From contig DATKWU010000009.1 in NCBI GenBank assembly GCA_035529375.1, positions 93,848 to 157,847 of the forward strand: 64,000 nucleotides of DNA. The letters are read 5' to 3'. Origin of the DNA: Patescibacteria group bacterium. Its GTDB lineage: Bacteria; Patescibacteriota; Microgenomatia; PFEM01; JAHIFH01. The notes beneath the pieces were generated by a model. The model saw nothing but the letters and a program-made list of their open reading frames with translations, did not search any database and was not told the origin of the DNA. This document shows, piece after piece, positions 18,563 to 47,760 of this stretch; the stretch's first letter is position 1, and each line of letters starts with the position of its first letter. The translations under genes were made by a program, and so were the position numbers.

Positions 18563-18636
18563 TGCGGGGTGGTGTAATGGTAGCACTGATGGCCCTGGAC
18601 CATCCGATCTAGGTTCGAATCCTAGCCCCGCAGCCA
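18563..18636 (+). tRNA. tRNA-Gln (anticodon CUG)
   Basis: TGCGGGGTGGTGTAATGGTAGCACTGATGGCCCTGGACCATCCGATCTAGGTTCGAATCCTAGCCCCGCAGCCA. U1-A72 pair typical of tRNA-Gln. Anticodon stem GATGG/CCATC with loop CCCTGGA, T arm CTAGG-TTCGAAT-CCTAG. CCA is encoded. Confidence 0.8.
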
Positions 18637-18672
18637 AGATGGGCAACCTTGTGATGGAGCTCTCTTTCTAAA

Positions 18673-19821
18673 ATGAAAATATTATTAATAGACTGCGATA
18701 CTAAAATCGAAAAGGCGCTATCAGCTATGGGAGCTCGGGTATCTGTTGGAACCCTAGGTTTCGAGAGTGGTGAAAGATATATACCAGTCGCATTATATGA
18801 ACAAGACATTATCGTCTTTAATCCATCTAGTGTCTCATTTATTGAAGATGAAATTGTTGAGGAAAAAGAGGGAAAACTATACTTTCCATCAATCAAGATG
18901 ACAGGCCCTCTAGTAACGCGAGACGACATGAATGATTTTTTCGACAAAGGAGGGGTGTTTATTGTTTTCTATAATCCTTTAGTAGCCGACATTAAAAAGG
19001 AGATGGCTATTTATGAATGGCTTACTAATCAGATCATTGCAGAACCCAGCAATGATAGGGATTTAACAAAAGTAATGTTTCCCGACGATGATGAATATAT
19101 TCCATTCAAGTCATTGTTGAGAGATTTTACACCCAAAATTCCGGTTGAAAGAAAATTGTATTATATTGATGAAAAATTATATCCTAGGGTTCTCATTAAA
19201 AATATTCGAAATGATAAGATTGCCATTTTTGCTAAGAAATCGGATGGGCTTATTATTGCACTGCCTACATACGAAAAAAATAACGATGTAATTAAGCACA
19301 TAGTGAGTTATGTATATCCTCAGTTATATGAAATTGAACCAAAACTACCTAAAATATTGGATGTTAAGAAATCTCAATTACAGTTGGAATTGGAGGATGA
19401 GAGAAATAAAAAACAACAAATCATAGACAATACCCAAAAAAAGATTGAGGACATTAATAGCAAAATAATAAATGAAACCTTGAGAATAGAGAAACTTACG
19501 ACAACCGACCCTACAGCAGTTGTAATATTGGGATATCTAAACGACATTCTTGATGATCCGAAAGATAGTTTCCATGCAGCTTATAAAATAACTGAAAAGT
19601 TATCAGAAATTTACGGAGGTGATAACGCTGCGAAAACTAAACTGAATATAAACAGAGGGTTTAATTTTATACGTAGAATATCGAATGAGGCATTTAGAGA
19701 CACTCGGCATACTCCAAAACAAAATGAAGTGATAAAACCGCCCACGCCTGAAGAAAATAAAAAGCTTGTGGAGAATTCTATTGTTATTGTAAGAAAGTAT
19801 ATAGAAGAGCTGACTCAATAA
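18673..19821 (+). CDS. Hypothetical protein. First gene of the accessory segment.
   Basis: 382 aa ORF starting 37 bp after tRNA-Gln. It has an acidic central region and a coiled-coil stretch (LQLELEDERNKKQQIIDNTQKKIEDINSKI). No recognised catalytic motif. Confidence 0.5.
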   Translation: MKILLIDCDTKIEKALSAMGARVSVGTLGFESGERYIPVALYEQDIIVFNPSSVSFIEDEIVEEKEGKLYFPSIKMTGPLVTRDDMNDFFDKGGVFIVFYNPLVADIKKEMAIYEWLTNQIIAEPSNDRDLTKVMFPDDDEYIPFKSLLRDFTPKIPVERKLYYIDEKLYPRVLIKNIRNDKIAIFAKKSDGLIIALPTYEKNNDVIKHIVSYVYPQLYEIEPKLPKILDVKKSQLQLELEDERNKKQQIIDNTQKKIEDINSKIINETLRIEKLTTTDPTAVVILGYLNDILDDPKDSFHAAYKITEKLSEIYGGDNAAKTKLNINRGFNFIRRISNEAFRDTRHTPKQNEVIKPPTPEENKKLVENSIVIVRKYIEELTQ

Positions 19822-19852
19822 AGGCTTTGAAATATAGATCAACATGGTGAGA

Positions 19853-19891
19853 GTTATAAGGTCTAGACGGGGGCAGACCGGTATGCTCAGC
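19853..19891 (+). repeat. R-repeat copy A (GTTATAAGG + TCTAGAC-GGGGGCAGACC-GGTATGCTCAGC, with an internal partial duplication)
   Basis: Matches the 23-bp family consensus GGTTCTAGACCGAYCYGCTCAGC, with an 11-bp insertion that duplicates AGACC. It lies 32 bp after the stop of the 382-aa gene. Confidence 0.7.
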
Positions 19892-19982
19892 AAAATTTAT
19901 AGAAGTTCCGATCGACCGAGGGTTCTCTTTTAAAAATTAATCAACTGAGAAAATTTCGGAATGAAAAAAGAATAATAATTCT

Positions 19983-21896
19983 ATGAAAAACCAACTAGTG
20001 ACCCTTGCAGCAATAAAAAGCTTTTATGAATCTGGTTGCGATTTCATTGACGTATTCTCTAACCTTGTATTACAAGAAATACCTACCAAGCCGATAATAA
20101 TAATAAATATACAACAAAAAGTTATTGATGAGTGGAATATTAATATTCCACTTGATGTAATAAGAACAATAGTTAAAAGACTAAAAAGAAAGTCACTTAT
20201 AGATTATAAAAATAGAGAGGAATCAATTTGGACGACGAGTGATGGTGAAACAGAGAAAATAAAGATCAAAAGCACAATAGACAGTACAAAAAGAGAAAGT
20301 CTCGCCCTAATTAAAAAATTAAAAATCTTCATTGAGAAAAAAAGTCGTAAAAAAATCAATTCCTCTAATGTTTCTCGAGCACTCGATGCATTTATTCATA
20401 AAAATTACTACAGTGTGGCATCAATATTAGCAAAAGAACAACAACCAACCTATCCACAACTCCAAATCGAAAAAATGATTATGGATTTTTTTATTAAGAC
20501 AGAGGAATCCGATCCTGAAAATTTTGAAAGACTAAAAGCCATAGTATATGGGAAAATTATTTCTTCTGTATTAGTAAGCCAAAGGAAAAATTTTGTGAAA
20601 GAGGCAAAATTTGAACCCCTTGATATTTATCTAGATACAAACATTTTATTTAGTGTTATGGGATTACATGAAGAATCTTTTAATAAACCCGCTAGAGAGT
20701 TGATAAAAATTCTAAAAAAATTAGGTTTTAATCTATTCATTTTTGGTTTTACACGAGATGAGGTTGTAGCCAAACTAAAAGATTTTATACGTGAGTATGA
20801 TAATTATTCTGAACAAATACCAGTAGACTCAATATACTACCAACTAAAACGATTAGGTTTCTCAAAACAAGACATTATTTTGAAGATTCAAAAAATTGAG
20901 GAAGAACTTAAAGCTCTTGGTATAGAAATAGATTACCAATGGGACATTGATAAATTGCTTGACGAGAGAGAAGAAAAATTACAAAAACTAGAAGAGAAAA
21001 AGTTAAAATCAGGTTACTCTATAAAACATGATATAGCAGCTATTGAGGCAATCAGACAAATACGGGGAAAGCGGGTATATTTGATTGAAAAATCTAAGGC
21101 AATATTTTTAACAGCGGATAGTAGGCTTTCTATTTTTAGCTTTAAAAACTATGATCATAAGTTAAATAGTTCTCTACCGGAGGTAATTTTTAGAACTGAA
21201 TTGACTAGCATCTTGTGGTTAAAAAATCCCGGCATAAATCCTAGTATGCCCATTCATGATCTTATAGCAGGCTATGCTAAGAATTTTCTTTTAAAAGTCT
21301 CTCTTTGGGAAAAGTTTATTGCCGAAATTAAAAGACAAAAAAAACAAGGAAAAATAAATGATGAAGACATTTCAATATTAATCTCTAGCAACGAAACAGA
21401 AAAAATTCTTTTTGATATTCAGTCTGGCGCTCAAAAAGAAAACTACATTCCATTATTAATTGATGAACAAATAAGAAAAAGAAAAAAAGAAAAAAAACTC
21501 AAAGAAAAAGAAATAGAACACCTGAAAAAGAAAGAACAAGGGATAAGACAAGAATTAAATAGCTTGAGGAAACAAATAGAAAAATATGAAAATATCAAGA
21601 AGTCAATTAGGAGTCATTGTGAAAAAAAATGGAATTTTATTCTAAATTTCCTAATTTGCTTGATTGCAATAGTAATTTCTAGATTATTGATCTTGTTTAT
21701 TTTAAAAGTTGGCTTGGGTTTATTTGAGAGCTTAACGTCTCTAACAGTATTTTTAGTCATTTTGTGGTCTACTATTTCTCTCATATCGGAAAAAGATTTC
21801 AAATTTTTAAGCTTTATGGTCTCTTTTAAAAAAAAATTAAAACAAAAACTGATTAAAAATTCTATCGATAAAAATTATAAAAAGTTTGGCTTGTAA
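19983..21896 (+). CDS. Large hypothetical protein with a PIN-like nuclease signature and a C-terminal membrane anchor
   Basis: 637 aa. The central segment LDIYLDTNILFSVMGLHEESF...FTRDEV...FLTADSRL resembles the PIN-domain acidic quartet (D, E, D, TxD). There are long Lys/Glu coiled-coils and two C-terminal TM helices (FILNFLICLIAIVISRLLILFIL, LTVFLVILWSTISLI). Confidence 0.5.
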   Translation: MKNQLVTLAAIKSFYESGCDFIDVFSNLVLQEIPTKPIIIINIQQKVIDEWNINIPLDVIRTIVKRLKRKSLIDYKNREESIWTTSDGETEKIKIKSTIDSTKRESLALIKKLKIFIEKKSRKKINSSNVSRALDAFIHKNYYSVASILAKEQQPTYPQLQIEKMIMDFFIKTEESDPENFERLKAIVYGKIISSVLVSQRKNFVKEAKFEPLDIYLDTNILFSVMGLHEESFNKPARELIKILKKLGFNLFIFGFTRDEVVAKLKDFIREYDNYSEQIPVDSIYYQLKRLGFSKQDIILKIQKIEEELKALGIEIDYQWDIDKLLDEREEKLQKLEEKKLKSGYSIKHDIAAIEAIRQIRGKRVYLIEKSKAIFLTADSRLSIFSFKNYDHKLNSSLPEVIFRTELTSILWLKNPGINPSMPIHDLIAGYAKNFLLKVSLWEKFIAEIKRQKKQGKINDEDISILISSNETEKILFDIQSGAQKENYIPLLIDEQIRKRKKEKKLKEKEIEHLKKKEQGIRQELNSLRKQIEKYENIKKSIRSHCEKKWNFILNFLICLIAIVISRLLILFILKVGLGLFESLTSLTVFLVILWSTISLISEKDFKFLSFMVSFKKKLKQKLIKNSIDKNYKKFGL

Positions 21897-21913
21897 TTTA
21901 AAAATACAGAAGC

Positions 21914-21936
21914 GGTTCTAGACCGACCTGCTCAGC
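21914..21936 (+). repeat. R-repeat copy B (GGTTCTAGACCGACCTGCTCAGC)
   Basis: Exact match to the family consensus, 18 bp after the stop of the 637-aa gene. Confidence 0.8.
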
Positions 21937-22032
21937 TAGGAAAAGCTCGATTTAACAAACTTTTCCGATTTGTAGTAGAACTTTTGACATGAGAACTAGG
22001 TCCCAAATTTTTAGTTTTTTAGAAAGGCATTG

Positions 22033-22061
22033 TTGACAAATTAAAAAGATAATGTTATAAA
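22033..22061 (+). promoter_or_regulatory. Sigma70-like promoter (TTGACA-N17-TATAAA)
   Basis: Near-consensus -35 and -10 hexamers with a 17-bp spacer, 45 bp upstream of the ORF starting at 22106. Confidence 0.45.
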
Positions 22062-22105
22062 AGTTTTACTGCTCCAAAGGCAGTTATTTTTTTAAGAGAA
22101 ATATC

Positions 22106-22537: not shown

Positions 22538-22668
22538 CTTTTTCTTTCATTAAATATTATTATTGTTCAAAAAGTTTTTATAATTTCAGTTAAATTAACC
22601 TCAGAATAAGAAAACAAGCCTCAGAAGGTCCTTAGGAAGTACAAAAGTGTAAAAACTTCATCGATTTT

Positions 22669-22729
22669 TGATAAACTATTCTTGGAAAGATAAATTTATA
22701 AGTTCGGAAATCATCAACAAGTGCCAGCC
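22669..22729 (+). repeat. S-repeat copy 1 (TGATAAACTATTCTTGGAAAGATAAATTTATAAGTTCGGAAATCATCAACAAGTGCCAGCC)
   Basis: About 60 bp and nearly identical to the copy at 38895-38954. It ends 17 bp before the likely HIT start codon. The ORF track's TTG start at 22668 translates this repeat. Confidence 0.75.
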
Positions 22730-22745
22730 AAGAACCAGAATATTT

Positions 22746-23207
22746 ATGAAACACACAAAGAAAGATCGACCAAATTTTCTATTTGAAACTAAACATTGGA
22801 AAGTCTATTTAAATCCAGATCAGTATTATTTAGGCAGGTCTGTCGTGGTAGCAAAAAGAGATGTAGGCAGCCTTTCTGACTTAACCAAAGATGAATGGTT
22901 AGATTTTACGGAACTTATTAAAAAAATTGAAGCTACCTATAAAAAATCATTTGGCGCAACAATGTTTAACTGGACTTGTCTCATGAACAATGCATATAAG
23001 AACGATCCTCCCAACCCCCATGTTCACTGGCATCTTCTCCCCAGATATAAAAAAGCCGTAACGTTTAAAGGAATTGATTTTGGAGACAATGAATTCGGCA
23101 GTCATTATGCTCGAAAAATTGACCGGGCTGTACCAGATGAGGTTTTCAGTGAAATTGTCAAAGTAATAAAAAAATTCTCAAGACAATATAGGACCAAAAA
23201 GGCCTAG
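22746..23207 (+). CDS. HIT family hydrolase
   Basis: Histidine triad HVHWHLLPRY near the C-terminus. Start re-assigned to the ATG at 22746, because the upstream part of the listed ORF translates the S repeat. The TAG stop at 23205-23207 lies inside R-repeat copy C. Confidence 0.7.
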   Translation: MKHTKKDRPNFLFETKHWKVYLNPDQYYLGRSVVVAKRDVGSLSDLTKDEWLDFTELIKKIEATYKKSFGATMFNWTCLMNNAYKNDPPNPHVHWHLLPRYKKAVTFKGIDFGDNEFGSHYARKIDRAVPDEVFSEIVKVIKKFSRQYRTKKA

Positions 23208-23223
23208 ACCGACCTACTCAGCC
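23201..23223 (+). repeat. R-repeat copy C (GGCCTAGACCGACCTACTCAGCC)
   Basis: Family match that overlaps the HIT gene's stop codon (ccTAGacc). Confidence 0.75.
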
Positions 23224-23257
23224 AACCCCAACCACCCGTCACTTCAATAATCTTCTC

Positions 23258-23920: not shown

Positions 23921-23977
23921 AGATATCTATCTTACGTTAAAACAAAATTACTCACAATCTAGAAGACATGTTTTTAC

Positions 23978-24066
23978 TGTCTCATTTGTCTCATCTAGCT
24001 TTGAGATGGTAAACTAGGAAAGACTAAGTTATAAGGACTGAAAGATCCCAGACCAGCATTCACAAC
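23978..24066 (+). repeat. Composite T-R element, copy D (tandem TGTCTCAT-TTGTCTCAT, then GTTATAAGG, then a degenerate R: CCCAGACCAGCATTCACAAC)
   Basis: T motif at 23978-23994, GTTATAAGG at 24028-24036 and a degenerate R at 24046-24066. It lies between the 5' end of the nuclease gene and the methyltransferase start. Confidence 0.6.
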
Positions 24067-24088
24067 AAATTTAGAATTTTTCTAGAAT

Positions 24089-24718: not shown

Positions 24719-24752
24719 AAAATTTTTAAACTTCTTTTGGTATAATTCAATT

Positions 24753-25220: not shown

Positions 25221-25277
25221 ACCCTAACCTCCTCCACGAGGTAAGGAAGGAATTTATTTATTCTGTAATATTTCCTA

Positions 25278-25622
25278 TTATTTACCTGTTATACAACTCT
25301 CGTCAATTTCAGAAGTGCGGCAAATCAACAACTCACCATCTTCTTCAATAATGTTTCCAATAAGATCACTGCCGCATTTGCACATTTCAATATCTCTTCC
25401 TCCATGTCCATCATCACAAAATTCCTTTCTAACCTTGCCTGGTTTAAAGACGGTATCACAACCAATACAAACCCGTCGGTATCCTTGATCGAAAGCCTCT
25501 CTTAAAGTTAAACCATTTCCATCTGCTGAATTGTCTTCAAACTTGGAATCTTTTTCGCTCATTTTTAGGTAATTAAAAACTGCCCCTTCGGACAGTGAAT
25601 GTATTATAACACCTTTCTTCAA
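25278..25622 (-). CDS. Hypothetical Cys-rich small protein
   Basis: 114 aa. Several CxxC-like pairs (CIGCD, CKCGSD). Confidence 0.4.
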   Translation of the reverse strand: MKKGVIIHSLSEGAVFNYLKMSEKDSKFEDNSADGNGLTLREAFDQGYRRVCIGCDTVFKPGKVRKEFCDDGHGGRDIEMCKCGSDLIGNIIEEDGELLICRTSEIDESCITGK

Positions 25623-25652
25623 ATAAATAAATAAAATAGCTCAAGTGATTTT

Positions 25653-25725
25653 TGATAAACTAACTCGGGAATAAGATATAATATCAACTAATTTTGAGGT
25701 TCGGAAATCATCCACGAGTCCCAGC
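25653..25725 (+). repeat. S-repeat copy 2 (TGATAAAC...TATAAT...GGTTCGGAAATCATCCACGAGTCCCAGC)
   Basis: Shares the TGATAAAC head and the 27-nt GTTCGGAAATCATC-N-ACGA-N-TCCCAGC tail with the other S copies. Lies 235 bp upstream of the GH130 gene. Confidence 0.6.
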
Positions 25726-25961
25726 AAGATTGGACACAAAGCGACCGTAAACTCTCAAATAGGTCGATAACACTTGCTAAACCTCTACTTTGTTTTTAGG
25801 AGTTTCGGACCGTATCCTTGTTATTTAGGAGATTTTGTTTTTGTTATAATTTCCTTTCTAACCATAAACCGAGGCTCAACAGATTGTATTGGTCTTTTTT
25901 GATACAATGTCAGTGTCCTCATGCTCCTTTTGAAATAACGTAAGTTTAAAAGAGTTTAATA

Positions 25962-29200: not shown

Positions 29201-29240
29201 AACCAGCACTTGGGTGTCGAACGAAGCCCTTTTTTTATAC

Positions 29241-29313
29241 TGTCTCATTTGTCTCATTTTTTCTAAAATTAGGTTGAGTTATAAGGATAGAAAATTGCTA
29301 GACCGAGCTGCCC
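29241..29313 (+). repeat. Composite T-R element, copy E
   Basis: T at 29241-29257 (TGTCTCATTTGTCTCAT), GTTATAAGG at 29278-29286, and a degenerate R (GCTAGACCGAGCTGCCC) at 29297-29313. It lies 41 bp after the glycosyltransferase stop. Confidence 0.7.
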
Positions 29314-29370
29314 AAACACATTAAACAAATCTCAAAATTTTATACCATGTGTTTTTGATATACTCTACAT

Positions 29371-29730: not shown

Positions 29731-29822
29731 TATTATCAAAAGCAAGAATAATTATTTGATCAGAAGCTAATATAGTAAGTCCAAATTCAGTTCACGGTTC
29801 GCTGCCAAGCACTTTTTTACAT

Positions 29823-29888
29823 TATCTCATTCGTCTCATTTACCCTTGAGTTATAATGACATGAAGGTTCTAGACCAACCGGCTCAGC
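29823..29888 (+). repeat. Composite T-R element, copy F
   Basis: T-like TATCTCATTCGTCTCAT at 29823-29839, GTTATAATG at 29850-29858, and R (GGTTCTAGACCAACCGGCTCAGC) at 29866-29888. Confidence 0.7.
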
Positions 29889-29901
29889 GAGTCACCCGCT
29901 T

Positions 29902-30671: not shown

Positions 30672-30708
30672 GTTATAATAAAAAAGGCTCTAGACCAGCC
30701 CGCTTAGC
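30672..30708 (+). repeat. R-repeat copy G (GTTATAATA + GGCTCTAGACCAGCCCGCTTAGC)
   Basis: Family match (CTTAGC variant) lying between the divergent HExxH gene and the HDAC-like gene. Confidence 0.7.
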
Positions 30709-30710
30709 AA

Positions 30711-31586: not shown

Positions 31587-32165
31587 ATGAAAACTAAAAA
31601 AGTCAACTGTATTATTATTCATGGATGTCCTTGGGATATTAAAAAGGCAATGGATGCCAAAACTAGAACTTATGATAAACGTTGGATTCCTTGGCTAAAA
31701 AAAGAATTAACTTCTCGAGGAATAAAAACCAAAGCTCCCCTAATGCCTAAACCCTGGTATCCAGACTACCAAGCCTTTAAAAAGAAATTCGAAAGATATG
31801 AAGTCACCAATAACTCTATTCTAATTGGTCATAGCTGTAGTTGTGCCTTCTTAGTTCGCTGGTTAGGAGAAACAAAAAGGAAAGTAAAAAAACTTATCTT
31901 GGTTGCTCCTTGGAAAATTCCGGATAAGAATAATCAATTAGAAAAATTACTCTATGAATACCCTATTGATAAAAAGATTAAGGCAAGAGTAAAAGAAATT
32001 GTCATGTTTACCGCCGATAACGAGGAAAAAGATGGTAAAAAGAGTTTAAAAATTTTCCACAAAGTCTTAGGAGGAAAAATAATTGAACTTAAAGGAAGAG
32101 GTCATTACACCCTAGAATATATGAAAAATCAAGAATTTCCTGAATTATTAAAGGAAATAGTTTAA
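31587..32165 (+). CDS. Alpha/beta hydrolase (YdeN/RBBP9-like serine hydrolase)
   Basis: 192 aa. Nucleophile elbow G-H-S-C-S and an IIHG start typical of the family. Confidence 0.55.
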   Translation: MKTKKVNCIIIHGCPWDIKKAMDAKTRTYDKRWIPWLKKELTSRGIKTKAPLMPKPWYPDYQAFKKKFERYEVTNNSILIGHSCSCAFLVRWLGETKRKVKKLILVAPWKIPDKNNQLEKLLYEYPIDKKIKARVKEIVMFTADNEEKDGKKSLKIFHKVLGGKIIELKGRGHYTLEYMKNQEFPELLKEIV

Positions 32166-32203
32166 GTTATAAGGATAAAAAGAGCCTAGACTGGCCTGCT
32201 CAG
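32166..32203 (+). repeat. R-repeat copy H (GTTATAAGG + GAGCCTAGACTGGCCTGCTCAG)
   Basis: Begins 1 bp after the hydrolase stop codon. Sits between the hydrolase and the 3' end of obg. Confidence 0.7.
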
Positions 32204-32230
32204 TAACGAACCACTCGCTATCGCTCGGGT

Positions 32231-33244
32231 TCATCTCTTCGCCGAGGCAAAAGATTTTAAAATAAGGGTTCTTAGTTTTCCCAAACTATCCCGATCATGA
32301 ATAGAAACGGGTAATATTTGTTTTTTCAGTTTTTTTAATGCCTTAAACTTTTGTTTTACTTCTTTCTCTGATTTTAAATCTGTTTTGGTAAGAAGAATAA
32401 TTTCCGGTATCTTTAATAATTTTGGATTATAACTTTTTAGTTCGTTCCTGATTTGTTGATAGTTTTTTTCGGGCTCTTTAAGTTCACAAGAAAGACAATG
32501 AAATAAGAGTGAAACTTTTTCAATATGTTTTAAAAATTTGATCCCTAAACCTTTTCCTTTAGAAGCTCCTTCTATAAGTCCTGGAATATCAGCAATAATT
32601 TTACCATCCAATTCTCCCAAGTTAGGCTCAAGAGTAGTAAAAGGGTAATCGCCGATTTTTGGATTAGCGTTTGTTATCTCTTTAAGCAAACTGCTTTTAC
32701 CGGCATTAGGAAAGCCAATAAGCCCATAATCAGCTACAAGCTTAAGATTAATATATAAATCTCTTTCCTGACCTTTAAAACCACTTTGGGCATACATTGG
32801 CGTCACATTTCTAGAAGAACGATATTCCCAGTTGCCTTTACCTCCCCAGCCTCCCTGACACAAAAGAAGACGACAGTCTTTGTCAGTCACTTCAAAAACT
32901 TCTTTAGAATTCTTATCAGTAATAATAGTCCCAATTGGAAGTTTAACTTCTAAATCCTCAGCAAACTTGCCGTCTTTTTTATTTAACATCCCATGCTGAC
33001 CATTTTTTGCTTCGATTTTGACGCTTTTTGAAAGATTAGAAAGAGCGTAAATATCTGAAGTAGAGGTAATAAAAATACTGCCACCCTTTCCCCCATTGCC
33101 TCCATCTGGACCTCTTCTTCCTTTATAAAAAGAAACTTTTCCATTTCCGCCATCCCCCGCCTTAAACTTAATATTTATTTCTGTAATTAACATTGTTTTC
33201 TTCATTATATCAGGCAGGTTGAAATCTGTGAATTCAACCTTCAA
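32231..33244 (-). CDS. obg: GTPase Obg/CgtA (no TGS extension)
   Basis: 337 aa. Obg fold with Gly-rich repeats (GDGGNGKVSF, GGNGGKGGSIF) and a G domain (GLIGFPNAGKSSLL, DIPGLIEGA, TKTD). Confidence 0.85.
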   Translation of the reverse strand: MKVEFTDFNLPDIMKKTMLITEINIKFKAGDGGNGKVSFYKGRRGPDGGNGGKGGSIFITSTSDIYALSNLSKSVKIEAKNGQHGMLNKKDGKFAEDLEVKLPIGTIITDKNSKEVFEVTDKDCRLLLCQGGWGGKGNWEYRSSRNVTPMYAQSGFKGQERDLYINLKLVADYGLIGFPNAGKSSLLKEITNANPKIGDYPFTTLEPNLGELDGKIIADIPGLIEGASKGKGLGIKFLKHIEKVSLLFHCLSCELKEPEKNYQQIRNELKSYNPKLLKIPEIILLTKTDLKSEKEVKQKFKALKKLKKQILPVSIHDRDSLGKLRTLILKSFASAKR

Positions 33245-33316
33245 AGTGCTTTAGTTATTACACCTTGAAAGTGCTAGAAAAAGGCTGGGTAGATTTAGTG
33301 GGAGATAAAGTAGGGT

Positions 33317-33523
33317 GTGCGAGGTTTTACTCAAGCTCTTACTAAAGAGTATCCGAATCTTAAAGTTTATAATTTTGTTTCTGGTGGTGTAGCCACACGG
33401 ATGAAAAATTTTAAAGACATCGCATCTGATAAAATTGCCCAATTAATCTTAGATTTTGCTAAAGAAAAGGACACTTTGAAATCAGGTTCAGACATCAACG
33501 CGAGAGACTTCATTAAATATTAA
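33317..33523 (+). pseudogene. Remnant of a short-chain dehydrogenase/reductase (C-terminal fragment)
   Basis: The 68-aa ORF reads RGFTQALTKEYPNLKVYNFVSGGVATRM, which resembles the C-terminal third of SDR enzymes. There is no upstream Rossmann/catalytic part. Confidence 0.35.
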
Positions 33524-33605
33524 TACAAAAGCCACACCCAATGACTTTCCTTCTTCAAAATTAGAACTTCAAATAACTTATGAAAATGTTAAAATGGCCT
33601 AAATC

Positions 33606-33935
33606 ATGAATATTATAATTAAGAAGAAGGTAACAAAGAAGCAACTCCACGAATTAGGCAGACATTTTGATGGATATATAAAAGTTGTTGTTGACGTTGA
33701 AAGAGAAATTCTTGCCGGCGGAGCAGGTAGACATTTCGAAGAAGAGAAAATACTACTAACAAATGGATCAAAGCAGAAAGATTTATGGGGAGGCGGTTTT
33801 GATGCTAAAACTAAAGAGATTGATTATAATTCAGTTATAAATTTAAGACCCAATCAGGAAAATCCCAGTAGAGACATTCTTTCTTTAGATATAAGAAAAA
33901 AGTTTGATGATATCATTAAAAAACTTTTTCTTTAA
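33606..33935 (+). CDS. Hypothetical protein
   Basis: 109 aa ORF. No recognised motif. Confidence 0.4.
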   Translation: MNIIIKKKVTKKQLHELGRHFDGYIKVVVDVEREILAGGAGRHFEEEKILLTNGSKQKDLWGGGFDAKTKEIDYNSVINLRPNQENPSRDILSLDIRKKFDDIIKKLFL

Positions 33936-33940
33936 TATAT

Positions 33941-34246
33941 ATGGATAATCGAGCTAAAGTATTAGATATTGCCATGAACTTGAACCGTATAGGTAATTGG
34001 GCCGCCGATGATTATTCCGGTAAAAAAGAAAGAATAAAGACTTTTTTGAGAAATACTTCTTCTTATATTCAAGATTTAGACAAAAATTCCTTACCTAGTG
34101 CCTTTATGAGTACTTTTAATAATTTTGTGAAGGAATATCACTCTCTTGAAAAAGAGGGTATCAAAAAACCCAAGAATCCGGTTTTTTGGGCAGAGGATAT
34201 GATGACTTGGGGAAATATTCTCACCCACCGCTCCAAACTTATTTAA
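33941..34246 (+). CDS. Hypothetical protein
   Basis: 101 aa ORF, 5 bp after the previous one. No motif. Confidence 0.4.
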   Translation: MDNRAKVLDIAMNLNRIGNWAADDYSGKKERIKTFLRNTSSYIQDLDKNSLPSAFMSTFNNFVKEYHSLEKEGIKKPKNPVFWAEDMMTWGNILTHRSKLI

Positions 34247-34290
34247 AATAAAATCTAGACTTTTTGGACTCGAATATAGGGCTAGAATGG

Positions 34291-34311
34291 GGCTAGACCG
34301 GCCTGCTCAAC
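34291..34311 (+). repeat. R-repeat copy I (GGCTAGACCGGCCTGCTCAAC, preceded by the partial duplicate GGGCTAGAATGG)
   Basis: Family match with an adjacent truncated duplicate. Sits between the small hypothetical genes and the 3' end of typA. Confidence 0.65.
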
Positions 34312-34353
34312 ATAAGAATTTTAACTTTAGAATAAATTTTAAAAAAGGCAGAT

Positions 34354-36152
34354 CTATTTAAGACCTTTTGCTTGGCGTTTGGCTTCATTTAAATCCAAAA
34401 TTATTTTTCTGATTCTTACTGCCTTGGGAGTAACGTCAACCAGCTCCGTATTATCAATATAATCCAGGGCGGCATCCAAATCCATAATTTTTGGTGTATT
34501 TAAATGTCTGGTAACCCCCTCACCTTTGGAACGCATATTGGATAATTGTTTTTCTTTGCAGACATTAACAGACAAATCACCCAGCCGGGAGTTTTGACCA
34601 ACTACCTGGCCTTTATAAACTTCCACATTTTGACCGATAAATAATTCTCCCTGATCCTGAACATTAGTTAAACCATAAATCCTGGTCAGACTTGACTCAT
34701 GGGCAACCAAGGAGCCATGCTCTCTTTCTTTCAAGGTGCCTTTTTGGGGTATATATTTATAAAACACGGTATTTAAAATACCTAAGCCATGGGTGTCGAT
34801 CATAAATTTAGTCCGGTAACCGAATAGTCCCTGAGTAGGAATAATAAATTCAAGATAAACGATATTGTTATTGGTTTGCATTTGTCTTATTTCGCCAAAA
34901 CGGCTGTTTAATTTTTGGATAACCGCACCAGAATATTCTTCCGGTACTTCGATAAAAACCTCATCACAAGGAATCATTTTTTGGCCGCCAATATTTTTCA
35001 CAATAACTTGCGGTTGGGAAACTTGCAAAGAAAAACCTTCACGGCGAAGGCGTTCGATAAAAATCGCCAGATGTAGTTCGCCTCTGCCGGAAACAATCCA
35101 GCCGCCTTGTGGGCTATCTTCAATACGCAAGGCCACATCATTATCCAGTTCTTTATATAATCTTTCCCTGATTTGACGGGAGGTCGTGTATAAACCTTCC
35201 CTGCCGCCAAATGGTGAAGAGTTAACTTCGAAAGTCATCTTTACTGTCGGTTCTTCTATTTGTAAAAGAGGCAGTGCTTGAGGTTTTAGAACGTCAGTAA
35301 TTGTCTCGCCGATAGTGATATCAGGAATCCCGGCAATGGCGACAATTTCTCCGGCTTGAGCCTGGGGTGTTTCCACTTGTTCCAAACCCTGAAATGTCAT
35401 TAAAGAAGTTAAACAATATTTTTTCATTATCCCTATGCGATTAATATGCATCACTTCCTGGTTAGCTTTTAGACTGCCATTATAAATTCTACCCCGGGCC
35501 ACTCGGCCTTTAAAATTATCCCGGCTAATAGAAGTAACCAGCATTTGTAAGGGTTTGCTCAAGTCAGCTTTCGGAGCAGGCACCTGTTTAATAATTTCTT
35601 CAAACAAAATCGAAATATCAGTCATTTTACTAAGATCCGGGTCCAGTCCGGCTTTACCAAATTTTGCCGATGCATAAACAATGGGAAACTCAGCCGTTTG
35701 CTCATCAACCCCTAAGTTAATAAACAAATCAAAAGTTTTGTTTAAAGCTTTACTGATATTGACATTAGATTGATCAATTTTATTGATGACCACAATAATT
35801 TTATGTTTTAACTCCAAAGCTTTTTTCAAAACAAATCTGGTTTGAGGCATGGGGCCGTCATGAGCATCAATTAACAAAAGCGAGCCGTCAGCCATTTGCA
35901 AAACCCGTTCGACTTCACCCCCGAAGTCGGCGTGTCCCGGCGTATCAATAATATTAATTTTGACACCACGCCACATAATCGAGGCATTTTTAGAAAAAAT
36001 AGTGATGCCTCGTTCGCGCTCCAATTCGTTACTGTCCATAATACAGACGGTATCGGTCATTTCTTTGCCAAGATGGGTGGCAGATTGGCGAAGTAAAGCA
36101 TCCACTAAAGTGGTTTTACCGTGATCTACATGAGCGATAATGGCTATATTGC
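34354..36152 (-). CDS. typA: Translational GTPase TypA/BipA
   Basis: The listed ORF has an implausible 58-aa N-terminal extension. The real start is likely the ATG at 36150-36152, which has a GGAG Shine-Dalgarno. 599 aa, beginning MEIRNIAIIAHVDHGKTTLVD. Confidence 0.9.
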
Positions 36153-36441
36153 GAATTTCCATAAAATTAACTCCTATTAATAAAAAATACCTATTTCTAG
36201 GCATTTCAACCCGACGCCTATTATACTTCATTTCCGTGTCAAAATAAATTATCTGGATATTTGGCAAACTGTGGAAGGGATTGCTCTTATTTTTATCGAC
36301 CAAAATTCTGCGAGGACGAATCAAAATTAGAATCACCTATCCCTAGGCTCTAATAAGATGTATAATTAAGAGTATTAACCACATAAAAATATTTCTTCTC
36401 CCTTAAGATTTATTTTGTGCTTTATTAGTAAAAACTTTTTT

Positions 36442-37602
36442 ATGAACCAAATTACCACCTTTGACGTTTTGATTGTCTACTCTAAAAGACTCGCCATCAG
36501 TGCCAATTCTGTATCCGAAGACGTTACTGCCCCATTTGCCAAAGGGTCTGATAGTGAAAGCTACAACCTAGTTTATGGCTACTTTTTGAAAACCTGCCGA
36601 AAAAACAATTTAAAAGCGGCTTTTACAACATCTGCTGATATTGTGGGTGCAGGAAAATGTCGAAGTTATTGGCTCTTCGAAAATGAAACTTGGATAAAGA
36701 TCCGAAAAACAGGCTTTTCAAAACTGATTTTTGACAAATTCTCTCCGACGAGTAAAAGCATAAAAATAAATCGTAATTTACTTTTTTCTTCAGGAAGAAT
36801 CAGACCTTTTAATAATCCCTGCCTTTTTAATCTTTGTTTTGACAAACAAAAAACTTACAACAAGCTCCATAAATTTTCTATTCCCACAGTAACTATTGAT
36901 GATCGTACCAGAAAAGGAGTTGATAAAGAGTGTAAGGCGCTAAAAGAGAAAATAGCCAGACATCCGTACAAAGACGATTTTTCCGAGGAAATTATAATGA
37001 AAAACAGATTCGGAGCTGGCGGGAGAAATGTCTACAAATTTAAAGCCAATCAATCCAATATGATGATGGCATCAATGAAAAAGCATAAAAAAATATCATT
37101 TGTTATTCAACCATTTGTAAAATTTGATAAAGGCTTCAGTTATCAAAACTCTTCAGTTTCAACCGATATCAGGTTAATATACCTCGGAAAAAAGATTGTT
37201 CAAACATACATAAGAATGGCTAAGAAAGGAGACTTTAGATGTAATGAGCACAAAGGTGGATTACTAAAATATATACCAAAGAATGAAGTGCCTTCGAAAG
37301 TAGTAGCAGTTTCTAGAAATATTGCTAAGATTTTAGATAAAAGATCTTCTCTATTTGCTCTTGACTTTATTATTAGCAATAACGGTAATGTCTATCTTCT
37401 CGAAGCGAATACCGGACCAGGATTGGATTGGAATTTATCAATCAAGGAAAACGAAATTGAAGCCAAGAAACTAATAAGGATTATTATAAAAGAAATAGTT
37501 AGACGGATTAGCTCACCAAAAAATACTTCTAAAAGAAAAGCTGTAGTCGCTACAGTAAAGACTCCAATGATTAGCAAGCACCCAGTATCTCCAATAACCT
37601 GA
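36442..37602 (+). CDS. ATP-grasp family protein (RimK/GSH-synthetase-like)
   Basis: The C-terminal region (FALDFIISNNGNVYLLEANTGPG) matches the ATP-grasp large-domain signature. Start taken at the internal ATG (MNQITTF). Confidence 0.55.
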   Translation: MNQITTFDVLIVYSKRLAISANSVSEDVTAPFAKGSDSESYNLVYGYFLKTCRKNNLKAAFTTSADIVGAGKCRSYWLFENETWIKIRKTGFSKLIFDKFSPTSKSIKINRNLLFSSGRIRPFNNPCLFNLCFDKQKTYNKLHKFSIPTVTIDDRTRKGVDKECKALKEKIARHPYKDDFSEEIIMKNRFGAGGRNVYKFKANQSNMMMASMKKHKKISFVIQPFVKFDKGFSYQNSSVSTDIRLIYLGKKIVQTYIRMAKKGDFRCNEHKGGLLKYIPKNEVPSKVVAVSRNIAKILDKRSSLFALDFIISNNGNVYLLEANTGPGLDWNLSIKENEIEAKKLIRIIIKEIVRRISSPKNTSKRKAVVATVKTPMISKHPVSPIT

Positions 37603-37647
37603 ATTATTTAATTTTTTTAGTAATTTAAAATTTCCCCTTTTTCATTC

Positions 37648-37735
37648 TGTTTCATTTGTCTCATTTAGCCTCGGAATGATACAATTAGAGTGTTTAGTTA
37701 TAAGGATAGAAAGGTTCTAGACCGATCCGCTCAGC
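37648..37735 (+). repeat. Composite T-R element, copy J
   Basis: T at 37648-37664 (TGTTTCATTTGTCTCAT), GTTATAAGG at 37697-37705, and R (GGTTCTAGACCGATCCGCTCAGC) at 37713-37735. Confidence 0.75.
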
Positions 37736-38314: not shown

Positions 38315-38334
38315 AACTTAACACTGTACTAGTA

Positions 38335-38372
38335 GTTATAGGATCGGAAGGTCCTAGACCACACTGCTCAGC
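38335..38372 (+). repeat. R-repeat copy K (GTTATAGGA + GGTCCTAGACCACACTGCTCAGC)
   Basis: Family match, 21 bp after the GNAT stop. Confidence 0.7.
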
Positions 38373-38422
38373 TTAAAATTTTAAATCATTGAAATTTTGT
38401 TTGAAAAAAGAGAATTAGTTTT

Positions 38423-38806: not shown

Positions 38807-38894
38807 ACTTGAAATTTTAATATATTATGCCCTATAAGGCAAACTAAACTTTATATTTTAAAAAATTGTAAATTATAGAAATTTAGCTGTCATT

Positions 38895-38954
38895 TGATAA
38901 ACTATTCTTGGAAAGATAAATTTATAAGTTCGGAAATCATCAACGACTCCCAGC
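38895..38954 (+). repeat. S-repeat copy 3
   Basis: Near-identical to copy 1 (TGATAAACTATTCTTGGAAAGATAAATTTATAAGTTCGGAAATCATCAACGACTCCCAGC). Lies 74 bp upstream of the gene at 39028. Confidence 0.75.
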
Positions 38955-39027
38955 TAGAAAAAGACCTATTTGTTGGGCTTTTTTGTTTGTGGTTTTGTTA
39001 AAAGGCGTGTTTTGGTAAAATAAAAAC

Positions 39028-39657: not shown

Positions 39658-39723
39658 AAATTTAAACTAGTTATAACTTCGTCCACAAGGAAAACCTAAA
39701 TCTGTAGAAATTTGATTGACTTC

Positions 39724-39784
39724 TGATAAACTAAGGCAGGATGGTCCAAGTTGATGGTTCGGAAATCATCAACGACTCCCAGCC
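39724..39784 (+). repeat. S-repeat copy 4 (TGATAAACTAAGG...GTTGATGGTTCGGAAATCATCAACGACTCCCAGCC)
   Basis: Contains a 7-bp stem GTTGATG/CATCAAC around GTTCGGAAAT. Ends 11 bp before the likely GNAT start. Confidence 0.7.
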
Positions 39785-39795
39785 AAAAAGGTTTT

Positions 39796-40293: not shown

Positions 40294-40328
40294 GTTATTA
40301 GTTCCAGTTATTATTTGTATTTAAAACG

Positions 40329-40368
40329 GTTATAAGGATAGAAAGGTTCTAGACCGATCCGCTTAGCC
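40329..40368 (+). repeat. R-repeat copy L (GTTATAAGG + GGTTCTAGACCGATCCGCTTAGCC)
   Basis: Family match, 36 bp after the GNAT stop. Confidence 0.75.
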
Positions 40369-40466
40369 AAGCTTTCGCTAAAGCTACAAAATGGCAAGTA
40401 AAATTATCAAAACCGAGATTAAAAGAAAACAGTCCCCTTAACGCAAAGCGTTAGGAGTAATGAAAT

Positions 40467-41387: not shown

Positions 41388-41437
41388 CTTTATGGAAAGA
41401 TTACCAAAACGACTGGCCTATGTCTCTTTTTTAATAC

Positions 41438-41537
41438 TGTTTCGTTTGTCTCACTTCGACTGCGCTCAGTGTAAACTTTTTTGGTAAAATATATTCAGTT
41501 ATAAGGATAGTAAGGGCCTAGACCGGCCTGCTCAGCC
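41438..41537 (+). repeat. Composite T-R element, copy M
   Basis: T-like TGTTTCGTTTGTCTCAC at 41438-41454, GTTATAAGG at 41498-41506, and R (GGGCCTAGACCGGCCTGCTCAGCC) at 41514-41537. Confidence 0.7.
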
Positions 41538-41559
41538 AAACCCAATATAATTTCAAAAC

Positions 41560-43384: not shown

Positions 43385-43388
43385 TGGC

Positions 43389-44204: not shown

Positions 44205-44647
44205 AAACTGTTTGTTCCTTTCTTTAGAACTCGATTCATTTATTAATCTATACTAACAGTTACTGCTATTGTCTCATTTTCATCCTAAAGAATAAAGTTT
44301 GATGTAAAACCCCATGTCCATTCGAAGGTACTCCTTGCTTTAATGCATTAGACTAAGCAAACAGTTCGAACTTGTTTCTTTTTATGGCCAGTCATTTTTC
44401 GACCAGTTTGGAAAGATTAAAATAATACAATAGAAGCAAAACCAGAAAATACAACTGAATCACTGCTACAACAAATTAAAACATTTTAATAACCCCTTTT
44501 CCGCGCGCGATTTTAACGAAATCTATCAAGAAGATGCATTTAACATCTTTTTAGGTTAAATAGTTAGCTGGTTAAATTTTGCAACTAAACTAAAGCCTTT
44601 TACCTAAATAATTACTAGTTTAGACGCGTTTTGAAGATCCCTTTCTA

Positions 44648-46237: not shown

Positions 46238-46371
46238 GACAGATAATTAAACATGACAGGTAATTTTATTAATTTTCCGTGCCTTCGCCAGCTGCTAGTC
46301 CTACTTGGTGATTTCCAAACTTATGAATTTACCAATCCTGTATAATTATAACAAATTTATCAGTTCTATTT

Positions 46372-46704
46372 ATGATAAACAAATGTTCTCAGTGTGGCCT
46401 TTGCTGTTATTTATTCTTAGTGAATTTAACCGAAGAAGAATACCAGTCAGGCAAATACAAAACTCAGTTTGAGGAGTTTGGCTTGATTGATGACTTTCAC
46501 CAGGCAGCCGCGTGTGGAGCAAACATTCTCAAGCAAAAAGAAGATGGCAATTGCCTCTATCTTCAGGGAAACAAATGTTCTATTCATAGAATCAGACCCC
46601 AAGTTTGCAGAGAGTTTTTCTGTACCTCGAAGTTGAAAAAGTTCAAAAAAATGGTTAAGCAGATTGAAAAGAAACGAGCTAATCTGGAAAAGAGAAAGAA
46701 GTAA
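46372..46704 (+). CDS. YkgJ-family Fe-S/zinc-binding protein (CxxCxxCC)
   Basis: 110 aa. CSQCGLCC motif plus downstream C...C. Confidence 0.6.
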   Translation: MINKCSQCGLCCYLFLVNLTEEEYQSGKYKTQFEEFGLIDDFHQAAACGANILKQKEDGNCLYLQGNKCSIHRIRPQVCREFFCTSKLKKFKKMVKQIEKKRANLEKRKK

Positions 46705-46706
46705 AA

Positions 46707-46729
46707 GGCTCTAGACCAGCCTACTTAGC
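46707..46729 (+). repeat. R-repeat copy N (GGCTCTAGACCAGCCTACTTAGC)
   Basis: Begins 3 bp after the YkgJ TAA stop. Confidence 0.7.
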
Positions 46730-46755
46730 AGTTTTAGAATTTCGGTCTCAGATAC

Positions 46756-46953
46756 ATGTGCTATAATGAATTTATCAATAATAACAAAGAGACAATCGAC
46801 AATTTAATAGTTATTTTCTTCGAAGAAGGTGGTCGTATTGACAAATTCTACCTCCAAAAGAGAAAAAGAAACCCCTCGCTGGTTTACTTGAATGGTTGGT
46901 TTCGCGGTCGCAATATCCGTGAAGCAATATTAAGAGCGCTTGCGGACCAGTAA
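46756..46953 (+). CDS. Small hypothetical ORF
   Basis: 65 aa. Weak support. No motif. Confidence 0.25.
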   Translation: MCYNEFINNNKETIDNLIVIFFEEGGRIDKFYLQKRKRNPSLVYLNGWFRGRNIREAILRALADQ

Positions 46954-47052
46954 ACAATTTTATTCCACGCAAAATATAACTACCTTTCTAATACTTTCCA
47001 GGTAAAATTTGGCCTTTTATGGTTTTCTTTCTATAAGAAATTAGACCAGGAG

Positions 47053-47376
47053 TTAACGATAACCTCCCCCTCTTGGTCCTCGACTGTCTCTTGGACCTTC
47101 CCTTCTGTTGTCAAAACTCGGTCTTTCTTCTCTTGGTTTTGCAACATTGACAGCAATCTTTCTTCCTCCCATCTCAGTGTCATTTAACTTCTTAATAGCT
47201 TCATCTGCTTCCTCGTCGTTTTCCATATCAACAAAAGCAAATCCCTTGCTTTGACCACTATATCTGTCAGTGATTAGATCACAAGAAACAATCTTGCCAA
47301 ATTTGGAGAATATTTCTTCTATTTGGGAGCTCGTTACAGTATAAGGAAGCCCTCCAACGAATAGTTTTTTGGACAT
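47053..47376 (-). CDS. RRM-type RNA-binding protein with a Gly/Arg-rich tail
   Basis: 107 aa. RNP-2 LFVGGL, RNP-1 KGFAFVDM, and a C-terminal RGG-like tail. Confidence 0.8.
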   Translation of the reverse strand: MSKKLFVGGLPYTVTSSQIEEIFSKFGKIVSCDLITDRYSGQSKGFAFVDMENDEEADEAIKKLNDTEMGGRKIAVNVAKPREERPSFDNRREGPRDSRGPRGGGYR

Positions 47377-47562
47377 TTATTTTTCACCACCCTTCTGTTT
47401 TAAAATACTGTCTCTATCTGGCGACCAGAAAAAACCTTTGGAGGATATCTTCTTATCTGACTAGAAGAAACAGGTGTTAATATATCCCTCCTTAAGGGAT
47501 ACGTTTGTATTATAACACATTATCTTTTCAACTGCATCATTTTCTCAAATATAAGGTAATTA

Positions 47563-47596
47563 GGTTCTAGACCGACCTGTATGGTTAATTATAAGG
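47563..47596 (+). repeat. R-repeat copy O, the last one (GGTTCTAGACCGACCTG, then TTATAAGG downstream)
   Basis: Truncated R (the CTCAGC tail is replaced) with ATAAGG elements on both flanks. Lies in the intergenic region before pyrF. Confidence 0.6.
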
Positions 47597-47760
47597 CAAG
47601 AAAATTTTTAGAATAATTCACTCAGCCATTTCAAAATTACTAACTAAGGTAAAATTCTCTATATTGTTTTTTTACCTCTTGACTTTTTGTGAAAAAGATT
47701 TTATTGTCAATTCAATATTCAGTCTGCCCCCTAAAAGTTTAATACGATAAACTAAATAAG

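Follow-up and report, generated by a model that had tools for sequence, protein, structure and literature searches.

The stretch analysed here, referred to as the window, comprises 64,000 nucleotides (nt) of contig DATKWU010000009.1 from a Patescibacteria group bacterium, and its subject is a variable segment (18637-49346) of 16 gene units lying between the YkuD and tRNA-Gln genes and a GH1 gene, as delimited by synteny with the relatives L042, L051, L046 and L076 (labels of this type denote the loci and contigs used for comparison). All units but the last end in a short repeat, which is called R. The segment is interpreted, with a probability judged to be about even, as one case of a tRNA-Gln-anchored cassette array of Patescibacteria, which would be integron-like and whose units would be moved by site-specific recombination in trans. 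The array has a defined anatomy, is anchored at tRNA-Gln, keeps a strict polarity and varies in a modular manner, and it has recently exchanged units between lineages. Arrays of this kind occur across Patescibacteria at a conserved position, anchored at tRNA-Gln, and are not peculiar to the source genome.

R is about 40 nt long, with the consensus AGTTATAAGGATAGAAAGGTnCTAGACCGnCCTGCTCAGC and the core AAGGnnCTAGACCrnnCyGCTCAGC. A profile search using nhmmer gave 15 copies in the window, every one on the plus strand and together spanning 19847-47579, and no further copy in the window even at E ≤ 10. No copy was found in 20 kb of same-species DNA past the window ends. A 19-nt R pattern has 11 matches in the window, compared to 0.00 expected from shuffled sequences. 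The end of a plus-strand gene precedes 12 of the 15 copies; six copies are flanked by convergent genes and three by divergent ones, and the strand of R is constant regardless, so that R is still on the plus strand to the right of the seven units that open with minus-strand genes. Because the orientation of R is independent of gene orientation, a role of R as an expression signal of either neighbor is disfavored.

The head and anchor of the array is tRNA-Gln(CUG) (18563-18636, plus strand; ARAGORN and Rfam). Downstream of it, R1 (19847-19893) ends the unit of unk382, R2 (21894-21937) that of unk637, and R3 (23187-23223) a unit consisting of unk143, the element S1 and HIT179. R4 (24023-24066) ends the unit of a minus-strand SNase gene, R5 (29271-29316) a unit consisting of a methyltransferase gene, a GNAT gene, unk114 (minus strand), S2, GH130 and a glycosyltransferase gene, and R6 (29847-29888) the unit of HIT119. 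R7 (30672-30709) ends the unit of unk243 (minus strand), with the start codon of an HDAC-like gene 2 nt on, and R8 (32158-32204) ends the unit of this gene and a Ser_hydrolase gene. R9 (34268-34312) ends the obg unit, R10 (37692-37735) the unit of typA and an ATP-grasp gene (34312-37735), and R11 (38328-38372) the unit of GNAT181. R12 (40325-40369) ends a unit consisting of unk127 (minus strand), S3, a methyltransferase gene, S4 and GNAT180, and R13 (41490-41538) ends the FabD unit. R14 (46700-46730), a short form overlapping the stop codon of the CxxC gene, ends a unit of SsuCAB and PMT-like genes (both on the minus strand) and CxxC, and R15 (47543-47585), whose 3' end is degenerate, ends the unit of unk65 and a minus-strand RRM gene. 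The last unit, pyrF and pyrE (47586-49346), has no terminal R and is bounded by the R15 position and the GH1 border. R1 and R15 were located by nhmmer and alignment, R4 and R5 by nhmmer, and the other copies by both pattern search and nhmmer.

The S elements are a second kind of junction element, for which the repeat search gave four plus-strand copies: S1 (22644-22728), S2 (25621-25725), S3 (38870-38954) and S4 (39699-39783), with 3' cores at 22693-22728, 25690-25725, 38919-38954 and 39748-39783. They end in GGTTCGGAAATCATCAACGACTCCCAGC, S1 with ...GCCAGC and S2 with ...TCCCAGC. A further element, D6 (TTTTTATACTGTCTCATTTGTCTC...), is a 5' extension on five R copies, each D6 lying 60-70 nt upstream of R; it stands ahead of R4 (23964-23996), R5 (29227-29259), R6 (29809-29841), R10 (37634-37666) and R13 (41424-41456), and it is probably the repeat that the initial annotation named T. 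D6 is made up of up to four TGTCTCA/TGAGACA heptamers (TGAGACA-N12-TGTCTCA-TT-TGTCTCG-N17-TGAGACA), and its long form is present in L009, L013, L028 and L031. One indel between the strain L040 and the window has both ends within D6, which suggests that D6 might be another type of site or a cluster bound by a protein. The earlier proposal that all R, S and T repeats lie inside the segment holds, as the 15 R, 4 S and 5 D6 elements are all on the plus strand between 19.8 and 47.6 kb. A motif of the type TTCGACnnGCTCAGGGC(TATAGCCC) was also observed downstream of tRNA-Gln or R in L007, L011, L013, L024, L037, L042, L046 and L068, and likewise within one variant of the R 5' extension in the window (41450-41475).

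When the pattern AAGGNNCTAGACCNNNCNGCTYAGC was run against one-genome-per-species contigs, it matched 36 stretches, nearly all of which belong to Patescibacteria; the R-bearing groups include Woesebacteria, Amesbacteria, Shapirobacteria, Microgenomates, WWE3 and Saccharibacteria. The profile search gave 121 R copies in 48 loci, and none of the 23 loci with at least two copies mixes strands. The spacing of R has a median of 999 nt in a layout of gene-R-gene-R, and in the other genomes most array genes run in the orientation of R. The information profile of R peaks at 1.5-2.0 bits over AAGGnnCTAGACC...C.GCTCAGC, with a sharp 3' edge just past GCTCAGC and a gradual 5' fade. In the 36 loci found via R alone, the sole tRNA genes are those of tRNA-Gln, present in 11 loci, and in all 15 loci holding both R and tRNA-Gln, the tRNA gene lies upstream of every R on the same strand. 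YkuD, obg, typA, the ATP-grasp gene, RRM, GluRS and PBP5 recur near R in unrelated genomes, which indicates that the position of the array on the chromosome is conserved. The cargo elsewhere includes a beta-lactamase fold, an AadA-like nucleotidyltransferase, GNATs, methyltransferases, HhH-GPD, TspO, NUDIX, Fic, alpha/beta hydrolases and many unknowns.

No exact match of R was obtained in IMG/VR, the INPHARED phages or the PLSDB plasmids, and no BLAST match in PLSDB or INPHARED; one looser match from these collections, on a contig of 62% guanine-cytosine (GC) content, was rejected as chance. In the literature, searched for the motif itself as well, no description of R arrays was found, and in PMC7739484 hypervariable islands appear merely as a binning criterion. 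Several metagenome-assembled genomes titled 'uncultured Gammaproteobacteria' or 'Pseudomonadales' carry R arrays with tRNA-Gln heads (L004, L006, L012, L019, L021-L023, L027, L029, L038 and L039). One of them has a 615-kb chromosome, and they hold close homologues of window genes, e.g., RRM at 81% and PBP5 at 66%; these genomes look like mislabelled Patescibacteria.

R (GGTTCTAGACCGACCTGCTCAGC), S and the 3' end of tRNA-Gln (GGTTCGAATCCTAGCCCCGCAGC) have the common start GGTTC and the common end CAGC. R and the tRNA end have an equal span of 23 nt and are identical at 15 of the 23 positions; five non-R 23-mers in the window (the tRNA end and four others) reach at least 15/23, so this identity is at chance level. 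It is therefore suggestive only that R and S might be diverged look-alikes of the missing tRNA 3' repeat. The tRNA trailer CAAGAYGGGCA is shared by 8 of 115 R copies, and true tRNA-Gln 3' fragments are present within the arrays of L042, L072 and L083. Within the window, no second copy of the tRNA-Gln 3' end was found at up to 3 mismatches in 18 nt, in agreement with the initial annotation, which had reported no direct repeat of this end at the far boundary.

The turnover of units was followed in relatives retrieved via Obg and compared by blastp and blastn, with all comparisons made on metagenome assemblies. Among the relatives, units have been gained, lost and reordered, with the majority of the junctions lying directly past ...CAGC. 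In L040, which has 93-97% nucleotide identity to the window, the SNase unit is joined to the obg unit by one junction element, whose left flank corresponds to R4 with its D6 in the window, whose body corresponds to R5 on both halves, and whose right flank corresponds to the obg flank after R8. This composition indicates that the 2.9-kb block HIT119-R6-unk243-R7-HDAC-SerHyd-R8 lies exactly at the 3' edge of R5. In L044, CxxC-R-unk65 is inserted between R8 and obg, giving the order SerHyd-R-CxxC-R-unk65-obg; the corresponding orders are unk101-R-CxxC in L041 and L072 and CxxC-R-obg in L042 and L076. In L046, obg lies 36 nt past tRNA-Gln and is followed by R, a GIY-YIG gene and an inverted typA, and in L051, DUF5674, unk101 and typA are missing between obg and the ATP-grasp gene. 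The same-species contig L083 has other units in place of those from SNase to unk114.

The left edges of individual units are constant across such contexts. The CxxCxxCC cassette (46369-46729, plus strand; comparison of relatives) starts at the same base, 46369, in seven relatives of differing context, after ...GCTCAGC of various R copies or ...CCCAGC of S, and the left junction of the obg unit, ...CAGC|AACGAAyCACTCGC, occurs in six contexts. Between L042 and L076, the unit that follows one of the R copies shows 95% identity, whereas 3 of the last 12 nt of this R differ. Taken together, the L040 junction, the L042/L076 pair and the constant starts of the CxxC and obg units suggest that the junction falls on the final bases of R and that R would belong to the left-hand unit, as attC does in integrons. 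Since whole R-bounded units differ among the relatives, the view of the initial annotation that cassettes were inserted repeatedly at R-type sites, or that the array is long resident, is supported against a single-event island. The comparison of the interval from tRNA-Gln to pyrF across relatives, which had been proposed as a check, clearly shows no invariant order of genes and repeats, and the locus is dynamic.

The initial annotation had regarded obg and typA as core genes embedded on the minus strand among R copies. Their identity, strand and position were confirmed using Pfam. obg (32231-33193, or to 33244 depending on the start codon) is the first gene of the unit 32205-34311, which also holds an SDR-like fragment, DUF5674, unk101 and R9; typA spans 34354-36162, and its end at 36152 was corrected accordingly. 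To examine their standing as core genes, the window was compared with L042, L046, L051, L072 and L076 at four-fold degenerate sites. The identity is 0.29-0.48, i.e., saturated, for the flanking core genes Lon, YkuD, LysRS-type, GreA, GH1, GluRS, w51 and PBP5, and 0.37-0.38 for typA; it reaches 0.77-0.87 for obg, 0.87-0.88 for the CxxC cassette, 0.79 for the DUF5674 cassette and 0.90 for the unk101 cassette. As a control, the value for obg in the more distant L068 and L074 is 0.43-0.49, and thus obg is not intrinsically slow-evolving. The high identity relative to the saturated core, together with this control, indicates that obg and the small cassettes were exchanged between lineages long after the divergence of the core. 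The GC content at third codon positions (GC3) is concordant, at about 0.33-0.40 for the core, 0.365 for typA, 0.24 for obg and 0.17-0.31 for most cassettes. By these sequence comparisons, typA is a resident core-like gene caught within the array, as had been supposed, whereas obg behaves like the cassettes and is a member of the exchangeable pool with recent exchange between lineages. typA is inverted relative to L046, L056 and L072. The linkage of tRNA-Gln and obg is present even in the R-less relatives L045, L050, L055, L060, L062 and L068, which suggests that obg was probably an ancestral neighbor of tRNA-Gln that was later drawn into the exchangeable region.

The nature of R was examined through its folding, conservation and signal content. 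Single-stranded DNA folding of eight R-containing spacers gave z-scores of −1.8 to +1.3, mostly near 0 relative to shuffles, and an attC-like hairpin was ruled out for lack of excess folding stability. Rfam 15 gave no match to R at the gathering threshold or at E ≤ 5, the only matches being the two tRNAs and sub-threshold chance matches. RNAalifold gave no consensus structure for 76 distinct R copies, and the only candidate stem (GGnn/7-nt loop/nnCC) shows a pairing of 0.823, compared to 0.824 after column shuffling, and no covariation. These null results indicate that R is a linear sequence motif and neither an attC-type hairpin nor a structured RNA. Counts of promoter-like and terminator-like sites at R are not above those in shuffles, by which R as a sigma-70 promoter or intrinsic terminator was ruled out; a weak terminator score is given by three reverse-complemented R copies only, and a consistent sigma-70-like TTGATA-17-TAAATT, as in S1, occurs only in S. 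With respect to Xer/dif, no dyad of the ATAA...TTAT type is present in the R consensus or information profile, and all copies are direct; an interpretation of the left half as dif-like was ruled out by the architecture of R and by the junction lying elsewhere. A crossover within CTAGACC, in the style of T-loop-type tyrosine integrases, is disfavored by the intact R5 on both halves of the L040 junction. With respect to IS200/IS605-type or HUH systems, including palindrome-associated transposable elements (PATE) and repetitive extragenic palindromes (REP), there are no hairpins and no conservation past the junction, and the copies are clustered and co-oriented.

From tRNA-Gln onward, the array is composed of units that contain one or several genes, on either strand, each ending on its right in R or S, and the next unit begins at the base after ...CAGC. 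The following process could account for this. Units with a single site would enter or leave the array where a resident R, or the 3' end of tRNA-Gln (...GCAGC), terminates on its 3' side. The recombining enzyme would have to be supplied in trans, as the arrays themselves were found to encode none. The logic would be that of attC with attI or attC in integrons, or of integrase-less accretion at a tRNA gene, with a linear site replacing the folded attC. There is a substantial chance that the arrays constitute a distinct recombination system. The fuller proposition, that Patescibacteria have their own phylum-wide gene-capture platform at tRNA-Gln, working through an approximately 25-nt linear site (...CTAGACC...GCTCAGC) and through a recombinase or nuclease of a type so far unconnected with cassette mobility, possibly the small GIY-YIG proteins, and that this platform circulates the essential gene obg between lineages in addition to accessory genes, is put forward tentatively and is considered somewhat less probable than its negation.

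Several points weigh against movement by site-specific recombination in trans. The data consist of metagenome assemblies only, in which no circular intermediate was seen. Among open reading frames (ORFs) of at least 90 residues examined using Pfam, no recombinase, transposase or HUH protein was found in the 64-kb window; none of these was present in the gene tables of same-species contigs for 10 kb past each end, and no recombinase family was among the 25 most frequent families of 150 ORFs from other arrays. R has no hairpin or convincing dyad symmetry and fits no well-understood architecture of recombination sites. When 67 informative pairs of R copies were compared, their right-hand 12 nt showed no association with the gene on either side, and a crossover at the edge of R rests on two natural experiments only, namely L040/window and L042/L076. 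Breakpoints away from R were observed in L051 and L079, which fuse obg directly to the ATP-grasp gene, in L083, which diverges at 25872 of the window, and in L040, which has no DUF5674; the L040 indel with both ends inside D6 has its crossover in 19 nt of identity. These breakpoints indicate that other processes also act.

The leading alternative, considered rather unlikely, is homologous recombination with DNA taken up by transformation. R, S and D6 would then be portable homology patches with another role, such as insulator, terminator or promoter, and RecA would swap the units, in the manner of the minimal mobile elements of Neisseria. The missing recombinase and the breakpoints away from R would be explained, the crossover within D6 is of the expected kind, and the right half of R shows no linkage to either neighboring gene; in addition, reverse-complemented R is a weak terminator in three copies and S has a sigma-70-like promoter. 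Saccharibacteria are described as naturally competent (PMC10187176/PMC10633639). However, a conserved core of about 25 nt with mismatches is a poor substrate for RecA, and such a role gives no reason for a conservation of 1.5-2 bits per position across the phylum. The strict co-orientation (0/23 loci mixed) and the anchoring at tRNA-Gln remain unexplained as well, the promoter- and terminator-like sites are not enriched over shuffles, and the orientation of R ignores that of the neighboring genes. A further, improbable explanation is a nuclease-driven, homing-like spread, in which a GIY-YIG enzyme of the arrays would cut C-N-N-N-G at the end of R, S and tRNA-Gln, and repair from a donor copy would import neighboring units. 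The GIY-YIG domain of I-TevI cleaves at the motif CNNNG, and R (CTCAG), S (CCCAG) and tRNA-Gln (CGCAG) all end in it, followed by C. Stand-alone GIY-YIG genes of about 90 residues are the only recurrent DNA enzymes in the R loci, with 15 genes in 12 of the 48 loci, all of them co-oriented with R. Such genes recur in the arrays of L011, L016, L021, L024, L025, L031, L046 (2446-2685), L051, L072 and L083 (2279-2536); they are often the first gene past tRNA-Gln, and one is present in the same-species strain L083. Nevertheless, the window has no GIY-YIG gene, the enrichment over R-less loci is only about two-fold, the proteins have no DNA-binding domain, and homing normally destroys its target, yet R persists.

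That R acts at the level of RNA or expression, as a leader, processing site or small RNA, with the clustering due to similarly regulated accessory genes, is considered very improbable. R often abuts start codons, as R7 does that of HDAC at a distance of 2 nt, and most array genes elsewhere share its orientation; however, neither Rfam at E ≤ 5 nor RNAalifold in 76 distinct copies gave any sign of a structure, the stem pairing equals that of the shuffled columns (0.823 and 0.824), and R keeps its orientation in the six of 15 copies between convergent genes. An ordinary island integrated at a tRNA gene (the remnant of a prophage or an integrative and conjugative element, ICE) or a canonical integron has a still lower probability and is contradicted by the data, in spite of the position of the segment at the tRNA 3' end, the low GC of 29-34% at its tRNA-proximal end, and the true tRNA-Gln 3' fragments in the arrays of L042, L072 and L083. 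No integrase, phage or conjugation genes and no direct repeat of the tRNA 3' end were found in the window, the viral, phage and plasmid collections gave no match, an attC-type hairpin and IntI are lacking, and the unit-by-unit variation among relatives rules out a single insertion. Least probable of all is an assembly artefact, in which metagenome contigs misjoined at repeats would mimic shuffling and mosaic identity. Every relative is represented by a metagenome contig, and R is by nature repeated, but the window gene order is present at 98.6-100% identity in the independent samples ERZ27256827, ERZ27256828, ERZ27256834, JGI 3300031566 and SRR8554511/12; the R copies differ mutually and are shorter than assembler k-mers, and the mosaic pattern is repeated in at least five contigs of different projects.

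The tRNA-Gln-anchored array can be compared with several known systems. It resembles integrons and clusters of attC sites lacking integrase (CALIN) in its co-oriented sites about 1 kb apart (121 copies, none reversed within a locus, median 999 nt), each after a compact, mostly promoterless ORF. The site would remain attached to the ORF ahead of it, as in integrons; a new unit likewise begins from the 3' edge of the site, ORFs are occasionally reversed, and the cargo is rich in GNATs, nucleotidyltransferases, methyltransferases and unknowns and varies by strain. It differs in that no IntI is in view of the R arrays, and that R is a linear sequence conserved phylum-wide, whereas attC is an imperfect hairpin conserved in structure; the head is a tRNA gene instead of attI/Pc, and units may hold several genes, including obg. 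Having neither IntI nor the attC structure, the R array is not an integron by definition. Accretion of the type seen in the ICEs and cis-mobilizable elements (CIMEs) of Streptococcus thermophilus, and multi-event tRNA islands such as those of Prochlorococcus with repeated tRNA 3' ends, are similar in that they grow downstream of a tRNA gene in its orientation (in R arrays, 15/15 loci), with direct repeats separating units that have no integrase of their own; the true tRNA-Gln 3' fragments in the arrays of some relatives are a further likeness. In contrast to these, R has only chance-level identity to the tRNA end, its units are as small as a single gene, and one repeat family is combined with one tRNA across the phylum. 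The minimal mobile elements of Neisseria, like other cassettes exchanged through transformation, are alternative gene units between conserved sequences in naturally competent bacteria, without their own recombinase. They share the exchangeable units, but the homology there resides in flanking genes, whereas the R arrays have a dedicated, oriented 25-40-nt element between all units. In modules with asymmetric tyrosine-recombinase sites (shufflon sfx/Rci) and in pdif (Xer) modules, short conserved sites likewise bound gene modules, and sfx conserves only one arm. These sites act as inverted pairs in the shufflon or as an 11-6-11 dyad in dif, whereas the R copies are all direct and without such an architecture.

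With regard to the borders of the variable segment, its beginning agrees with the initial annotation, since the first ORF starts at 18673, 37 nt from the end of tRNA-Gln. Its right end, which had been placed at the pyrF promoter region (47760), was moved to 49346/49347. The GC3 of pyrF and pyrE is atypical (0.21 and 0.20, compared to 0.33-0.40 in the core flanks), both genes are missing at the corresponding position in L042 and L051, and the synteny of the relatives is picked up again only from the GH1 gene at 49347; pyrF and pyrE (47761-49317) are therefore probably the last unit of the segment. In L042 the interval from tRNA-Gln to GH1 is only 6.4 kb. The flanks hold housekeeping genes identified using Pfam, namely FtsEX, RF2, SecA, SerRS, LysRS-type, GreA, Lon and YkuD on the left and GH1, GluRS, PBP5-type, Asp/AsnRS-type, RecJ, CCA-adding enzyme and SecDF on the right. 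A tRNA-Glu gene lies at 14510-14584 (minus strand; ARAGORN and Rfam), and the GC content of the window is about 37%. The flanking core genes (1-18500 and 49347-64000) are nearly all on the minus strand, with a negative GC skew on the plus strand; tRNA-Gln, all R copies and the majority of the cassette genes are on the plus strand. From these strands and this skew, the array appears to be oriented against the presumed direction of replication. The anticodon loop of tRNA-Gln(CUG) is CCCUGGA, with C at position 33, and is identical in L046; other Patescibacteria tRNA-Gln have CUCUGAA. U33 is almost universal in tRNA anticodon loops.

Window genes were typed using Pfam for every ORF of at least 90 residues. 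The segment contains three GNATs, two methyltransferases (one weak), two HIT proteins, an SNase, an HDAC-like enzyme, a Ser_hydrolase, a lone FabD, an NMT1/ABC transporter, GH130, a glycosyltransferase, an ATP-grasp protein, DUF5674, a PMT-like membrane protein, a CxxCxxCC protein and an RRM protein. The cargo typical of mobile cassettes listed in the initial annotation (GNATs, methyltransferases, HIT proteins, nuclease, HDAC-like enzyme, hydrolase and lone fabD) and its SsuABC-like transporter were thereby recovered. Its SDR pseudogene fragment is present as an ORF (33317-33523), and the SDR identity, a resemblance by eye only, has no Pfam hit at E ≤ 0.01. This 68-residue fragment is deleted in L040 and, among the same-species contigs, is called as a gene only in L002, L083 and L084. 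The tRNA-adjacent ORFs of 382 and 637 residues (18673-21896) have the lowest GC of the window, 0.34 and 0.29, and gave no match in Pfam or PADLOC. In the 637-residue protein, a D-T-N motif resembling that of PIN domains and membrane helices at the C-terminus were seen by eye, and the two ORFs may be a recently acquired defence-type pair. PADLOC gave no match for eight unannotated ORFs of the window.

Patescibacteria, also called the candidate phyla radiation (CPR), account for a large share of bacterial diversity and have tiny genomes with few recognised mobile elements. The R motif provides a simple metagenome probe for the arrays, and its defined 25-nt site can be used for hunting a new recombination enzyme, which is testable in the genetically tractable Saccharibacteria. 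The apparent sweep of obg, an essential GTPase gene, from lineage to lineage on these units is uncommon and has consequences for its use as a phylogenetic or single-copy marker in Patescibacteria. If the proposed cassette platform is real, it would be a main route by which Patescibacteria acquire and trade accessory functions, and it would represent a second, mechanistically distinct instance of the integron principle.

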